Shown in pieces: positions 1 to 4,447 of a stretch of DNA of 4,447 nucleotides. Where the stretch lies: IMG/VR virus record IMGVR_UViG_2778261170_000007. One strand, given 5' to 3'. Position 1 is the first letter of the stretch. Every line of letters begins with the position of its first letter. Under the pieces are notes generated by a model. It saw only the letters and a list, made by a program, of their open reading frames with translations. It ran no database searches and had not been told where the DNA came from. Source of the stretch: a virus (lineage: Duplodnaviria; Heunggongvirae; Uroviricota; Caudoviricetes). A program made the translations under genes and the position numbers.

Positions 1-471
1 CCCGTTCCGTGGCCCTTAGAAACACCACCAACGGGCTGGCTAAAATGTAACGGAGCAGCATTTTCTTCTGAAAAGTATCCCAAACTGGCAAAAGCCTACC
101 CCACCAATAAATTACCGGATTTACGGGGAGAATTTATTCGCGGTTGGGATGATGGGCGCGGGGTGGATGCTGGCCGCGCTTTGCTTAATTGGCAGCCACA
201 CACAATTTTGGACCATGCACACTATATGGAATTATGGACAGGGGACGGACTCGCCGCAGGAAGTGCACGGGAAGGCGTAAATCCAGGAATACTAGCTACA
301 TACGGTGACGGGGGAATAGTTAAAACGGACGAACCCGGTCATAAGGTGCCTTCCTCACTACGAGCTATTAGCTCTCGTAGTGTTAAACGTTATGGTGAAA
401 TTAGTGGAAATGTAGGTACAGAAACTCGCCCTCGCAACGTTGCATTTAATTACATCGTAAGGGCGGCATAA
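1..471 (+). CDS. Tail-fiber tip / receptor-binding cassette A (tail-collar domain family), 5'-partial at window edge
   Basis: Frame 1 is open from nt 1 to TAA at 469-471. Translation PVPWPLETPPTGWLKCNGAAFSSEKYPKLAKAYPTNKLPDLRGEFIRGWDDGRGVDAGR...ETRPRNVAFNYIVRAA carries the tail-collar signature (P-x-GW-x-C-NG, LPDLRG-F-RG-D-GRG). HAH motif at 214-222. Nucleotide-identical in reverse complement to 3977-4447. Confidence 0.8.
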   Translation, partial: PVPWPLETPPTGWLKCNGAAFSSEKYPKLAKAYPTNKLPDLRGEFIRGWDDGRGVDAGRALLNWQPHTILDHAHYMELWTGDGLAAGSAREGVNPGILATYGDGGIVKTDEPGHKVPSSLRAISSRSVKRYGEISGNVGTETRPRNVAFNYIVRAA

Positions 472-483
472 AAACGTTGGTTT
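1..483. repeat. Left arm of a perfect >=483-bp inverted repeat (pairs with 3965-4447); truncated by the window edge
   Basis: Position x on the + strand equals the reverse complement of position 4448-x. Identity ends at 484 (g versus a), immediately after the conserved junction spacer. Confidence 0.85.
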
Positions 484-495
484 GGGGGAAGGCTC
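456..495 (+). repeat. Conserved 40-bp inter-cassette junction (candidate recombination/crossover site), A-B
   Basis: CGTAAGGGCGGCATAAAAACGTTGGTTTGGGGGAAGGCTC: last codons of one cassette, TAA, a 10-nt non-coding spacer AAACGTTGGT, and the first codons of the next. The identical 40-mer recurs at 3027-3066 and 3466-3505 on the minus strand. Confidence 0.5.
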
Positions 496-943
496 TGCAC
501 TGCCCGTTGGTGTGCCCGTTCCGTGGCCCTTAGAAACACCACCAACGGGCTGGCTAAAATGTAACGGAGCAGCATTTTCTTCTGAAAAGTACCCAAAACT
601 GGCAAAGGCTTACCCTACTAATAAATTGCCGGATTTACGCGGTGAATTTATTCGTGGCTGGGATGACGGACGTGGTGTGGATGCCGGGCGACAATTATTA
701 TCTTCACAGGGGGATGCAATAAGAAATATTGAGGGGTTCGCAGATGGCGGGATTGGCATGTCTTTTGATGCAATCAGAGGGGCTTTTTATGATGCAGGAA
801 CACGATCAGCGAGAATGCCGAATAACACAACTACTATAGACAAAACCGATGACCTTGGATTCGACGCCTCTCGTGTCGTGCCAACAGCTAATGAAAACCG
901 TCCTCGTAATATTGCCTTTAATTACATCGTAAGGGCGGCATAA
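482..943 (+). CDS. Tail-fiber tip / receptor-binding cassette B (tail-collar domain family)
   Basis: ORF with a TTG at the conserved module start (482) and TAA at 941-943. N-terminal block of subtype A (PLETPP, YPKLAKAYPTNK), a unique variable core with no HxH, and the conserved C-terminus ENRPRNIAFNYIVRAA. No ATG or convincing Shine-Dalgarno, so the true start is uncertain. Confidence 0.75.
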   Translation: MGEGSALPVGVPVPWPLETPPTGWLKCNGAAFSSEKYPKLAKAYPTNKLPDLRGEFIRGWDDGRGVDAGRQLLSSQGDAIRNIEGFADGGIGMSFDAIRGAFYDAGTRSARMPNNTTTIDKTDDLGFDASRVVPTANENRPRNIAFNYIVRAA

Positions 944-967
944 AAACGTTGGTTTAGGGGAAGGCTC
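928..967 (+). repeat. Conserved 40-bp inter-cassette junction, B-C (variant with TTA in place of TTG)
   Basis: Differs from the 456-495 junction by one substitution (TTG to TTA); identical to the minus-strand junction at 3953-3992. Confidence 0.5.
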
Positions 968-983
968 GGCGCTGCCCGTTGGC

Positions 984-1451
984 GTGCCTGTTCCATGGCC
1001 CTCAGCCACACCTCCAACGGGGTGGCTGAAATGCAATGGTGCAGCATTTTCTTCTGAAAAGTACCCAAATCTGGCAAAGGTTTACCCAACGTTAAAATTA
1101 CCTGATTTACGCGGTGAGTTTATCCGTGGTTGGGATGATGGGCGAGGGATTGACTCTGGTCGCTCTATTTTAAGCGAGCAAGGATATGCAACGGAGGATC
1201 ATGCTCACGGATTACCGTCAAAATCAACCGTAGCAACTGACCGCTCAATTAATTTCTACTTTGACGAGGCATGGGCTACTAGTGGTAATACGGGAGTTAT
1301 CAGATGGGGGAACACAAGCGATGCAGGATTGCCAGCCCCTAATTATGGAACTTTTAAAACATATAAACAGTCCGTAGCTAATTTAGGTACTGCTGGCTTA
1401 GAAACCCGCCCTCGTAATGTTGCATTTAATTATATTGTGAGGGCGGATTAA
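984..1451 (+). CDS. Tail-fiber tip / receptor-binding cassette C (tail-collar domain family); conserved module actually begins at 954
   Basis: The conserved module start codon is TTA at 954-956 (TTG in other cassettes); the first possible start is GTG at 984. The frame is open from 933. Subtype-B N-terminal block (PSATPP, YPNLAKVYPTLK), HAH motif at 1200-1208, C-terminus ETRPRNVAFNYIVRAD, TAA at 1449-1451. Confidence 0.7.
   Translation: MPVPWPSATPPTGWLKCNGAAFSSEKYPNLAKVYPTLKLPDLRGEFIRGWDDGRGIDSGRSILSEQGYATEDHAHGLPSKSTVATDRSINFYFDEAWATSGNTGVIRWGNTSDAGLPAPNYGTFKTYKQSVANLGTAGLETRPRNVAFNYIVRAD
987..1147. repeat. Left arm of a 161-bp perfect inverted repeat (pairs with 2333-2493) in the conserved 5' block of cassette C
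   Basis: 10-mer by 10-mer comparison of 987-1147 with the reverse complement of 2333-2493 shows identity, bounded by mismatches at 986 and 1148. Confidence 0.85.
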
Positions 1452-1456
1452 TTATA

Positions 1457-2068
1457 TCAACTGGCTGTAGAAAGTTGTTTTTCAGGCCAGTTGAGATCTG
1501 GTGCCGTGGTTAAATCCATCGCGTTCAGCTCGTCTATATAATCTAGCACGGAGTTAAGCTGCGTGGTTTCTGCCTGCGTCAACTTCCGTCCAGCCCGTAA
1601 TTTCAACTGAATCAGACTAATGGAATCCATCGCAGTATCAATCAATGACTGACGTTTTGTTTCTGCTGCCTCTACAGCTGCACTATGTTGAGCCTCAGTA
1701 TCAACCACCCATTTCTCTCCATCCCATTTGTCGTATGGTGTTAGCGGGGCGATAGTGGTTGTATTTTCCGGATAGTCACCCAACACCGTGATTTCTTCGG
1801 GATTCCCAGTGTCAATGCTATAGACAGTTTCGCCACGATGATCTGGCACATACTCCCATGAACTTAAATCCTCTGAACGGAGAATCGCATAACCTGCTTT
1901 ATGTGAGCCTGGAGCATCCAAACAAGAATTTGCCGGAATACCAACGCCAACAGCAAGATATTCAGTTGATGCAGAAATATATTCCCGATTACCACCATCA
2001 TAGTTATAAACGATAATGTTTCCTGCCTGTATGGCTATAAGTTCGCTATTTAATATCGCATTATCCAT
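1457..2068 (-). CDS. tfa: Phage tail fiber assembly protein (Tfa; Mu U / P2 G / lambda Tfa-like chaperone)
   Basis: 203-aa ORF with a canonical ATG at 2066-2068 and TGA at 1457-1459. The C-terminal region ...KWDGEKWVVDTEAQHSAAVEAAETKRQSLIDTAMDSISLIQLKLRAGRKLTQAETTQLNSVLDYIDELNAMDLTTAPDLNWPE matches, from memory, the conserved C-terminal domain of enterobacterial tail fiber assembly proteins (DTEA..., STAPDIEWP-like end). Its start overlaps the stop of the upstream cassette (TAATGG), indicating translational coupling. Confidence 0.85.
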   Translation of the reverse strand: MDNAILNSELIAIQAGNIIVYNYDGGNREYISASTEYLAVGVGIPANSCLDAPGSHKAGYAILRSEDLSSWEYVPDHRGETVYSIDTGNPEEITVLGDYPENTTTIAPLTPYDKWDGEKWVVDTEAQHSAAVEAAETKRQSLIDTAMDSISLIQLKLRAGRKLTQAETTQLNSVLDYIDELNAMDLTTAPDLNWPEKQLSTAS

Positions 2069-2526
2069 TATGCTGCTCTCACAATATAATTGAAGGCAAT
2101 GTTACGTGGGCGGGTTTCATTCCCCCCAGATAACTCCGTTCTGTATTGACTGGTAAATTTACCATTAATCGCTCCTTCTTGGACGGCGTTATCTGTCGAC
2201 AACAGACTATCCCCCCCTCTGTCATTTGGCACCAATACCGTGTTATCCCACGCGTCCCATGACCGAATATTATGATAATGACTTCCTGTTAACCACCCCT
2301 GTATGCTTAAGATGACCCTTCCCGCATCCACACCTCGCCCATCATCCCAACCACGGATAAACTCACCGCGTAAATCAGGTAATTTTAACGTTGGGTAAAC
2401 CTTTGCCAGATTTGGGTACTTTTCAGAAGAAAATGCTGCACCATTGCATTTCAGCCACCCCGTTGGAGGTGTGGCTGAGGGCCATGGAACAGGTACACCA
2501 ACGGGCAGCGCCGAGCCTTCTCCCAA
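2068..2526 (-). CDS. Tail-fiber tip / receptor-binding cassette D (tail-collar domain family), coupled to tfa
   Basis: TTG at 2524-2526, TAA at 2068-2070 overlapping the tfa ATG. Subtype-B N-terminal block, HYH motif at 2272-2280, C-terminus ETRPRNIAFNYIVRAA. Confidence 0.8.
   Translation of the reverse strand: MGEGSALPVGVPVPWPSATPPTGWLKCNGAAFSSEKYPNLAKVYPTLKLPDLRGEFIRGWDDGRGVDAGRVILSIQGWLTGSHYHNIRSWDAWDNTVLVPNDRGGDSLLSTDNAVQEGAINGKFTSQYRTELSGGNETRPRNIAFNYIVRAA
2333..2493. repeat. Right arm of the 161-bp perfect inverted repeat (pairs with 987-1147) in the conserved 5' block of cassette D
   Basis: See the left arm. Together the two arms bracket 1148-2332, which holds the cassette C variable core, tfa and the cassette D variable core. 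Confidence 0.85.
2341..2439. repeat. 99-bp perfect direct repeat, copy 1 (cassette D 5' block); copy 2 at 2865-2963
   Basis: 2341-2439 is identical to 2865-2963 (atcatcccaaccacggataaactcaccgcg...aaaatgctgc); flanking sequence is similar but has substitutions. Confidence 0.8.
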
Positions 2527-2552
2527 ACCAATGTTTTTATGCTGCCCTTACG
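2513..2552 (-). repeat. Conserved 40-bp inter-cassette junction, E-D (most divergent copy, 3 substitutions)
   Basis: Minus-strand sequence CGTAAGGGCAGCATAAAAACATTGGTTTGGGAGAAGGCTC. Confidence 0.45.
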
Positions 2553-3040
2553 ATGTAATTAAAAGCAACGTTGCGGGGGCGCATTGATATCCATGCCCCG
2601 GTAAAATTATCCTCTGCCGTCCTTTGAGTACCCGTTATGGAGTTATCTGCTGATGCTGGAACATAATCGCTATTATCTCCTGCTTTAGGATTAGCAGGGT
2701 TTCCAACAGTTATAACAGAATCAGCAGTAGCATAAGCGATACCTACTTTGACATTAGTAGTCAGATCGACACCGTAATAATCCTGCAAAGCTGTACGAAT
2801 AAATGTTGCAGTCTGACCACTTAGCAATGAACGCCCTGTATCAATCCCTCTCGAATCATCCCAACCACGGATAAACTCACCGCGTAAATCAGGTAATTTT
2901 AACGTTGGGTAAACCTTTGCCAGATTTGGGTACTTTTCAGAAGAAAATGCTGCTCCGTTACATTTCAGCCACCCCGTTGGCGGTGTGGCTGAGGGCCATG
3001 GAACAGGCACGCCAACGGGCAGCGCCGAGCCTTCCCCCAA
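2537..3040 (-). CDS. Tail-fiber tip / receptor-binding cassette E (tail-collar domain family)
   Basis: TTG at 3038-3040, TAA at 2537-2539. Subtype-B N-terminal block, the longest variable core (about 81 aa, no HxH), C-terminus MRPRNVAFNYIVRAA. Confidence 0.75.
   Translation of the reverse strand: MGEGSALPVGVPVPWPSATPPTGWLKCNGAAFSSEKYPNLAKVYPTLKLPDLRGEFIRGWDDSRGIDTGRSLLSGQTATFIRTALQDYYGVDLTTNVKVGIAYATADSVITVGNPANPKAGDNSDYVPASADNSITGTQRTAEDNFTGAWISMRPRNVAFNYIVRAA
2865..2963. repeat. 99-bp perfect direct repeat, copy 2 (cassette E 5' block)
   Basis: Identical to 2341-2439. Confidence 0.8.
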
Positions 3041-3066
3041 ACCAACGTTTTTATGCCGCCCTTACG
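3027..3066 (-). repeat. Conserved 40-bp inter-cassette junction, F-E
   Basis: Minus-strand sequence identical to the 456-495 junction. Confidence 0.5.
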
Positions 3067-3479
3067 ATATAATTAAACGCAATGTTACGAGGACGAATGG
3101 TTACATAATTAACCCCATCACCTCGTGAAGGCCCTGCAAATGAAAAACGGGAAAATCCTGGTTGGTTAGAAACAATTTGGTCATAGTTATTGATTGAATG
3201 ACCAGACCCAATGTCGAAATTACCTCCGTAATGAGAAAAACTTGTACCATCCTGCCCTGAAAGCAGGGTACGTCCCGCATCAATCCCGCGCCCATCATCC
3301 CAGCCACGGATAAATTCACCGCGTAAATCCGGTAATTTATTGGTGGGGTAGGCTTTTGCCAGTTTGGGATACATTTCAGAAGAAAATGCTGCACCATTGC
3401 ATTTTAGCCAGCCAGTTGGTGGTGTTTCTAAGGGCCACGGAACGGGCACACCAACAGGCAATGCAGAGCCTTCCCCCAA
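3051..3479 (-). CDS. Tail-fiber tip / receptor-binding cassette F (tail-collar domain family)
   Basis: TTG at 3477-3479, TAA at 3051-3053. Subtype-A N-terminal block (PLETPP, EMYPKLAKAYPTNK), the shortest variable core (about 56 aa), C-terminus IRPRNIAFNYIVRAA. Confidence 0.75.
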   Translation of the reverse strand: MGEGSALPVGVPVPWPLETPPTGWLKCNGAAFSSEMYPKLAKAYPTNKLPDLRGEFIRGWDDGRGIDAGRTLLSGQDGTSFSHYGGNFDIGSGHSINNYDQIVSNQPGFSRFSFAGPSRGDGVNYVTIRPRNIAFNYIVRAA

Positions 3480-3505
3480 ACCAACGTTTTTATGCCGCCC
3501 TTACG
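3466..3505 (-). repeat. Conserved 40-bp inter-cassette junction, G-F
   Basis: Minus-strand sequence identical to the 456-495 junction. Confidence 0.5.
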
Positions 3506-3948
3506 ATGTAATTAAATGCGATATTTCGTGGACGGGTTTCACTCCCGCCAGTATTACCAATACTCCCTCGAGAATGAAGTGTCGGTGATGGAATCAAATT
3601 CCCTCCTGTATTTGAGGCATCAAGCCCCCGTCCTTGTGTGTATGTTTTTTTGAAAATTGTCGCCAGCTCCCATTCATCTTTTGTGTCGTAACCATCATTG
3701 GCTACAACAATATGTCGGTGCTTTTCCAGCATTCCTGTCTGAATGCTCAATAAAGCACGTCCCGCATCCACCCCGCGCCCATCATCCCAGCCGCGAATAA
3801 ATTCTCCCCGTAAATCCGGTAATTTATTGGTGGGATAAGCCTTTGCCAGTTTTGGGTACTTTTCAGAAGAAAATGCTGCTCCGTTGCATTTTAGCCAGCC
3901 TGTTGGCGGAGTGGCTGAGGGCCACGGAACAGGTACGCCAACAGGCAA
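3490..3948 (-). CDS. Tail-fiber tip / receptor-binding cassette G (tail-collar domain family); conserved module extends to 3966
   Basis: The conserved module start is TTA at 3964-3966; the first possible start is TTG at 3946-3948. TAA at 3490-3492. Chimeric N-terminal block (PSATPP of subtype B followed by YPKLAKAYPTNK of subtype A), HRH motif at 3712-3720, C-terminus ETRPRNIAFNYIVRAA. Confidence 0.7.
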   Translation of the reverse strand: MPVGVPVPWPSATPPTGWLKCNGAAFSSEKYPKLAKAYPTNKLPDLRGEFIRGWDDGRGVDAGRALLSIQTGMLEKHRHIVVANDGYDTKDEWELATIFKKTYTQGRGLDASNTGGNLIPSPTLHSRGSIGNTGGSETRPRNIAFNYIVRAA

Positions 3949-3952
3949 TGCT

Positions 3953-3992
3953 GAGCCTTCCCCTAAACCAACGTTTTTATGCCGCCCTTACG
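3953..3992 (-). repeat. Conserved 40-bp inter-cassette junction, A'-G (TTA variant)
   Basis: Minus-strand sequence identical to the 928-967 junction. Confidence 0.5.
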
Positions 3993-4447
3993 ATGTAATT
4001 AAATGCAACGTTGCGAGGGCGAGTTTCTGTACCTACATTTCCACTAATTTCACCATAACGTTTAACACTACGAGAGCTAATAGCTCGTAGTGAGGAAGGC
4101 ACCTTATGACCGGGTTCGTCCGTTTTAACTATTCCCCCGTCACCGTATGTAGCTAGTATTCCTGGATTTACGCCTTCCCGTGCACTTCCTGCGGCGAGTC
4201 CGTCCCCTGTCCATAATTCCATATAGTGTGCATGGTCCAAAATTGTGTGTGGCTGCCAATTAAGCAAAGCGCGGCCAGCATCCACCCCGCGCCCATCATC
4301 CCAACCGCGAATAAATTCTCCCCGTAAATCCGGTAATTTATTGGTGGGGTAGGCTTTTGCCAGTTTGGGATACTTTTCAGAAGAAAATGCTGCTCCGTTA
4401 CATTTTAGCCAGCCCGTTGGTGGTGTTTCTAAGGGCCACGGAACGGG
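3965..4447. repeat. Right arm of the perfect >=483-bp inverted repeat (pairs with 1-483)
   Basis: Reverse complement matches 1-483 on the blocks checked; the arm runs to the window edge and so probably continues beyond it. Confidence 0.85.
3977..4447 (-). CDS. Tail-fiber tip / receptor-binding cassette A' (inverted identical copy of cassette A), 5'-partial at window edge
   Basis: The minus-strand frame is open to the window end, with TAA at 3977-3979. The reverse complement of 3965-4447 equals 1-483; this was checked on 1-180, 177-246, 241-300, 308-427 and the 3' junction. Confidence 0.8.
   Translation of the reverse strand, partial: PVPWPLETPPTGWLKCNGAAFSSEKYPKLAKAYPTNKLPDLRGEFIRGWDDGRGVDAGRALLNWQPHTILDHAHYMELWTGDGLAAGSAREGVNPGILATYGDGGIVKTDEPGHKVPSSLRAISSRSVKRYGEISGNVGTETRPRNVAFNYIVRAA

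Follow-up and report, generated by a model that had tools for sequence, protein, structure and literature searches.

The window is a DNA stretch of 4,447 bp. It makes up the whole of contig NMDV01000092.1 from the draft assembly GCA_002537815.1 (L049 in our set, identical to the window). It contains eight tail-fiber 3' cassettes, one tail-fiber assembly gene, and six 26-bp crossover sites (Table 1). Seven of the cassettes are distinct, and cassette A occurs twice. The cassettes bear the phage tail Collar domain. No transposase was present among the genes of the window. An earlier sequence-only reading had described a cassette array with A at both ends in opposite orientation, and this was correctly seen.

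Table 1. Cassettes, chaperone gene, and crossover sites of the 4,447-bp window. A' is the second occurrence of cassette A on the contig, and sites are named for the two cassettes that they join.
Feature	Start	End	Strand	Details
Cassette A module	1	483	+	5' end cut by contig end; ORF 1-471, open to the left; PF07484 Collar; ends in donor half, center, and 5 nt
A-B site	465	490	-	TTCCCCCAAACC AA CGTTTTTATGCC; center 477-478; both 12-nt halves among published p15B mix sites (PMC3241671)
Cassette B module	479	950	+	ORF 482-943; tail-fiber 3' segment without its own ATG
B-C site	937	962	-	TTCCCCTAAACC AA CGTTTTTATGCC; center 949-950; identical to p15B mixMr''N', mixO''P', and mixP''Q'
Cassette C module	951	1451	+	ORF 984-1451; last of the + chain; no site after it; tail to tail with tfa
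Tail-fiber assembly (chaperone) gene, tfa	1457	2068	-	203 aa; PF02413 Caudo_TAP and PF28596; start overlaps stop of cassette H
Cassette H module	2068	2531	-	ORF 2068-2526; sole cassette followed by tfa
G-H site	2518	2543	+	TTCTCCCAAACC AA TGTTTTTATGCT; center 2530-2531; differs at three bases
Cassette G module	2532	3045	-	ORF 2537-3040
F-G site	3032	3057	+	Center 3044-3045; published left half and published right half
Cassette F module	3046	3484	-	ORF 3051-3479
E-F site	3471	3496	+	Center 3483-3484; published left half and published right half
Cassette E module	3485	3971	-	ORF 3490-3948
A'-E site	3958	3983	+	TTCCCCTAAACC AA CGTTTTTATGCC; center 3970-3971; identical to mixMr''N', mixO''P', and mixP''Q'; inverted relative to the site at 465-490
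Cassette A' module	3965	4447	-	Exact reverse complement of 1-483; ORF 3977-4447, open to the right; runs to contig end

Counterparts of the tfa gene in relatives bear the annotation tail fiber assembly protein. In the window the gene comes directly after cassette H, with the stop and start overlapping, and the other six cassette types have none. Presumably one chaperone serves all of the tips, or most tips need none. The variable core of cassette A contains a coding 27-nt near-palindrome, CACTACGAG-CTATTAGCT-CTCGTAGTG, at 356-382 (and again at 4066-4092).

The sites between consecutive cassettes follow the pattern TTCCCC[C/T]AAACC AA CGTTTTTATGCC. All six have an AA/TT center. The sites were compared with those of p15B in the Din-family site table reproduced in PMC3241671. 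Two of the six (B-C and A'-E) are identical to published mix sites, three (A-B, F-G, and E-F) combine published halves, and one (G-H) carries three changes. Two sites point one way (465 and 937) and four point the other way (2518, 3032, 3471, and 3958), so the contig alone holds eight invertible pairs. Every site overlaps the preceding cassette's TAA stop and continues in frame (L-G-L-G-E-G-S-A-L-P) into the cassette that follows, which marks the cassettes as 3' gene segments that lack promoters.

Positions 1-483 are the reverse complement of 3965-4447 with zero mismatches, as the sequence-only reading had stated. The first mismatch is at 484. Identity beyond that point is about 89% and then 82% across the next two hundred bases, and it is at background after 700. 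The repeat spans a conserved N-block (1 to about 175), a variable core (about 176-420), and a conserved 3' block that includes the stop codon (469-471). It also holds the donor half and center of a 26-bp crossover site (465-478). Other cassette pairs differ in their variable cores, which had also been claimed. Their cores do not align, and only the end blocks are common to them (an N-terminal block of about 195 nt at 78-90% identity and a 3' block of 52 nt at about 85%). An identity of 483 nt far exceeds both chance and background paralogy. A chance repeat was ruled out on sequence grounds.

The repeat had been described as at least 483 bp, with the suggestion that the sequence be extended on both sides. 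It offers no possible extension, and the window is already the entire contig. The cassette A module of relatives runs only 36 nt further upstream of base 1 before the next crossover center, so a real repeat would be at most about 514-527 nt.

The ends of the window are assembly-graph boundaries and not arbitrary cut points. Window positions 1-77 are identical to 515-591 in cassette B, and the first A/B difference is at base 78. Base 1 equals 78 minus 77 and is thus where an A-specific edge would start in a SPAdes-style graph with K=77. We infer the assembler (SPAdes) and its K of 77 from these contig boundary coordinates, not from metadata. At the other end, base 483 directly precedes the first variable position past the 26-bp crossover site. 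It lies 5 nt beyond the center at 477/478. The variable position itself, in the next half-site, is G in the A-B site and A in the A'-E site.

Contigs that start at the identical base 1 were found in four other, unrelated draft assemblies. One is a free-standing 483-nt contig (L053) identical to window 1-483. The others are 486, 518, and 1,075 nt long. In assemblies of the K=55 type, base 23 (78 minus 55) is where contigs begin, and a 461-nt example (L065) equals window 23-483. Another free-standing contig (L070) equals 515-955, which is the B-specific edge alone. These isolated A and B edges, ending just after the site, show that branching at crossover sites is frequent in drafts.

The 483-nt repeat is a single graph edge, forward at one contig end and reverse complemented at the other. 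Its perfect identity and its symmetric truncation are both properties of the assembly, because one edge was printed twice. In a de Bruijn graph, two identical copies collapse to the same edge as one copy with two neighbors, so the identity is silent on the age of any duplication. The one biological fact that the repeat conveys is that B and E each adjoined the 3' site of A in the DNA that was sequenced.

BLAST placed the window with non-mobilizable P1-like phage-plasmids of about 95 kb from E. coli, Klebsiella, and Salmonella. There, the array is flanked by a tail-fiber constant gene (PF03406 Phage_fiber_2 repeats, then a fused Collar cassette) on one side and a 190-aa recombinase on the other. 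Almost all of the related arrays examined have this Resolvase+HTH_7 protein directly beside them. It hits the Gin structure with an E value of 4e-92 and is 73% identical to Mu Gin. From these relatives we infer that an invertase gene and a constant tail-fiber gene exist off-contig in this strain too. Both copies of A had been read as open to the window edge, each perhaps the 3' end of a longer tail-fiber gene. They are indeed cut by the contig ends. At most one of them would be fused to the constant gene, because in related arrays a single constant gene occupies one end and the invertase gene the other.

The outer p15B half-sites were located in the relatives. CGTTTTAGTCTT adjoins the invertase gene, and GGTAATCAAGAA lies at the end of the constant tail-fiber gene, reading ...IQSVLDYL and then GLGEGS. 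The donor sequence is ...AAGACTAAAACG TT GGTTT... at the invertase flank and ...TTCTTGATTACC TT GGTTT... at the constant gene. The N-block of cassette A has the sequence GGTTTAGGGGAAGGCTCGGCGC.... Acceptor half-sites and N-blocks are mosaic among the relatives.

In about 30 related loci, these cassettes recur at 98-100% identity, with their order and orientation changed in many ways. Each is found behind many different donors, both outer flanks included, and the center is always TT. The related arrays have about 4 to 17 crossover sites each. Such isomeric arrangements across genomes are evidence that inversion occurs; within this strain, only the dual neighbor of A points to it. Plasmid pMCR_SCKP-LL83 carries cassette A at 100% identity, and its array is 99% identical to the p15B min region (PMC5786510).

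Several features of individual relatives were recorded. The constant tail-fiber gene (L001, L003, L005, L009, and L060; for example, L005 2845-4435) has near-perfect tandem repeats with a 300-nt period in the Phage_fiber_2 region, and the copy number of this repeat differs between plasmids. An IS1 lies between cassettes in L011 (12,235-12,932). An IS3-family element splits the invertase gene of L012 (8,044-9,929), which should freeze that array. The region 82,000-91,100 of NZ_CP135665.1 (L057) has only about nine cassette types, and several of its modules occur two to four times, bounded at crossover sites. IMG/VR contig L030 (IMGVR_UViG_2724679172_000005) contains a perfect tandem duplication of an A-type module at 10,852-11,890. 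Its period is 514 nt, which implies an A-A junction. Such a junction is beyond the reach of inversion and would have to arise by unequal exchange, from an excised circle, or through an assembler loop. CP088508.1 (L006/L054) and CP088846.1 (L055/L056) are "complete" records 5-10 kb longer than their relatives. Their record ends overlap, with the tail-fiber array or the lysis/darA region at both ends. The array copies of CP088508.1 are in different inversion states, and circular trimming therefore failed.

Cassette A also occurs outside such arrays. It was found (at 96-98% identity) as a simple A-tfa pair in which tfa is only about 80% identical to that of the window (L017-L048). Of the 32 contigs from IMG/VR and metagenomes that hold the exact A 45-mer, about 25 carry this pair. 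The A core is also chromosomal, at 164 places in complete E. coli genomes. The cassette A tip thus appears to be common to other prophage types.

We read the window as a complete short-read contig of a Min-type (p15B-type) multiple DNA-inversion region from a P1-like phage-plasmid of Enterobacteriaceae, with the cassette A edge printed at both ends. We put the probability of this reading at about 0.9. The presumed enzyme is a Gin-family serine invertase with its gene immediately next to the array, and it would exchange strands at the central dinucleotide of the 26-bp mix sites. These sites sit between promoterless tail-fiber 3' cassettes. Recombination at any two inverted sites would flip the intervening DNA. 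The flip would fuse a different cassette to the single constant 5' part of the tail fiber and would alter the receptor-binding tip. Such systems are not new (p15B Min, 1990), and plasmids of Enterobacteriaceae commonly carry them. The Min multiple DNA-inversion region of plasmid p15B from E. coli 15T- was reportedly described by Sandmeier, Iida, Arber et al. in 1990/1991.

The interior of about 3.5 kb had been proposed to be one large invertible segment bounded by the copies of A. It is invertible in the Min-type reading. Its bounding agents, however, would be the inverted 26-bp sites (centers 477/478 and 3970/3971) and not the 483-bp repeat, and at least eight overlapping segments are available. 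Two other system types were considered and set aside. An R64-type shufflon has 19-bp sfx sites and a tyrosine recombinase, whereas the sites here are 26-bp Din-type sites and the relatives encode a serine resolvase/invertase. Transposon terminal inverted repeats do not fit a repeat that is a Collar-domain coding cassette and whose ends are contig ends, in a window with no transposase.

Cassette A may be present in two physical copies on one plasmid, one in the order donor-A-B-C and the other in the order donor-A-E-F-G-H. We give this an even chance. The second copy would probably have come from unequal exchange between sister plasmids, at crossover sites or in conserved blocks, that duplicated the module in tandem. 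An inversion between the A-A site and an opposite site would then have set the copies in inverted orientation. The alternative is a single physical copy in two isomers that differ by the 479-3969 inversion. The cassette after A would be B in one isomer and E in the other. The assembler would have walked from A through the interior to A', and A would be doubled on paper only. An assembly artifact from mixed inversion states was rightly listed as one option by the sequence-only reading; a single A in such a mixture seems to us a realistic explanation at a little under even odds. The contig passes six other junctions unbroken, and A is the sole neighbor at both interior ends, as expected from two copies. 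In SPAdes path extension, a unique extension at both ends yields such a contig, and a two-state mixture should leave the interior separate. A mixture gives each interior end two rival neighbors in reciprocal proportions, where an algorithm that selects paths by weight should halt or take the major isomer. An invertase active enough to produce a ratio of about 50:50 here should also break the contig at other site pairs, yet the contig is unbroken. This logic favors two copies. It depends on a deduced assembler, so we did not place it above the comparative prior. Finished plasmids also hold exact module duplications, with bounds within about 6 nt of crossover centers. NZ_CP135665.1 has 17 sites and, in an exact-run search, gave exact direct and inverted repeats of 494-1,011 nt. 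In NZ_LR890538.1, an 811-nt exact inverted repeat flanks an H-tfa-C core, the same X-core-X' pattern as in the window. These duplications of other cassettes look real. The perfect tandem A-A of L030 is the proposed precursor, and a single inversion of the A-A site with an opposite site would convert a tandem of that type into the window arrangement. The survey of cassette A itself, however, argues against two copies. A was found in 84 PLSDB records, 60 of them at 99% identity or higher. Among the best 40 of the 84, which were checked for a second copy, the only records with A in two places are three that resemble artifacts. CP088508.1 and CP088846.1 look like untrimmed circular overlaps with the array or its flank present twice, and NZ_LR882977.1 shows a tandem duplication of 3.8 kb with a frameshift. 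A search of E. coli genomes added a fourth record with A in two places, NZ_OY754380.1, but its second copy reaches only 90% identity. None of A-H occurs more than once in any of the ten long contigs (L007-L016) that were retrieved by way of cassette G. Conservative inversion, moreover, is unable to make a duplicate. The single-copy explanation agrees with the finished relatives, in which A is single. Both of its junctions are natural in single-copy arrays (A to B in L004, L039, and L055; A to E in L005, L011, L014, and L050), and two inversions separate the window order from the single-A array of CP110609.1. The free-standing A and B edges in other drafts indicate that branching is common there. 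Spurious contigs and artifactual duplications from mixed states have been documented (PMC4134206) and are matched in CP088508.1 and CP088846.1.

The remaining explanations concern the repeat as such. Very recent gene conversion, which the sequence-only reading had raised, would have A overwrite another end cassette by homologous recombination in the flanking conserved blocks. The N-block (about 195 nt, 78-90% identical) and the 3' block give some homology for this, and the mosaic acceptor half-sites and N-blocks in relatives suggest local conversion. The flank homology is short and diverged, however. The inner identity boundary is within 5 nt of the crossover site and is not a random tract end, a better fit to site exchange or graph branching. 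The perfect identity is without weight or information in a collapsed graph. We consider conversion very unlikely. The 483-bp repeat might also bound one large invertible element by itself, through homologous recombination or in a transposon-like manner. If the two copies are real, repeats of such length in inverted orientation can serve RecA-dependent inversion, and the P1 C segment is described with inverted repeats of about 0.6 kb. Against this, the repeat is a coding cassette and not a terminal structure, and it comes with no transposase. Canonical 26-bp invertase sites lie at its inner ends and between all of the cassettes. Relatives show the same shuffling without any such repeat. This last explanation is, in our judgment, extremely improbable.

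The biology of the Min-type array holds little that is new. Multi-site shuffling of tail fibers in P1/p15B-like plasmids was already known in 1990 and occurs widely among Enterobacteriaceae. A second copy of A, if real, would be a minor structural variant and one more example of module duplication. A broader claim is that A is physically duplicated at both array ends on one molecule and that Min arrays then grow by exact module duplication at crossover sites. We hold this to be possible but rather unlikely. If it is true, the invertase or the conserved blocks would mediate unequal exchange between sister plasmids, and inversion would then disperse the modules. Taken with the A-A tandem in L030 and the 17 sites in the array of NZ_CP135665.1, it would put the copy-number dynamics of the array outside the classical picture of conservative inversion only. 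If A also abuts the constant gene, the A tip would stay expressed in both orientations of the whole segment. The window also offers a methodological caution, which is its main value. When a short draft contig from an invertible locus has perfect inverted ends, these reflect the assembly graph and are not evidence of a recent duplication or of a new invertible element. Such loci also yield artifactual duplications in "complete" database records.

In E. coli EC958, invertase-driven mixtures of about 50:50 and spurious contigs have been described, with a warning of artifactual duplications in phage regions (PMC4134206). EC958 and the present locus share alternative contigs from invertase-driven mixed populations, and the same type of artifact is seen in CP088508.1 and CP088846.1. 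EC958 concerns long-read assemblies and two-site prophage switches, whereas this is a short-read contig of a multi-site array in which a real duplication is possible. The R64 shufflon shares the combinatorial inversion of 3' segments behind one constant 5' part. It differs in its Rci tyrosine recombinase, 19-bp sfx sites, and PilV tips.

The C segment of P1 (Cin/cix) and the G segment of Mu (Gin/gix) share with the array the recombinase family, 26-bp sites with a 2-bp crossover, and alternative 3' tips with a chaperone. P1 and Mu have two sites and two tips and undergo a simple flip, whereas the window array has many sites and tips and undergoes combinatorial shuffling. The closest likeness is to the Min region of p15B. 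Both have several overlapping invertible segments, and the mix sites match (two identical and three of combined halves). Both have alternative tail-fiber 3' segments for one constant part (presumably off-contig for the window), a single tfa-type core gene, and a P1-related plasmid prophage as host element. A Gin/Cin-family invertase lies alongside the p15B array, as it does in relatives of the window. p15B, compared here through its site table only, is described with six sites in 3.5 kb; the contig has six and two more implied off-contig, with seven distinct cassettes and A twice. A Min-type array of this kind is the multi-site analogue of the P1 Cin and Mu Gin switches (PMC6906374; PMC4134206).
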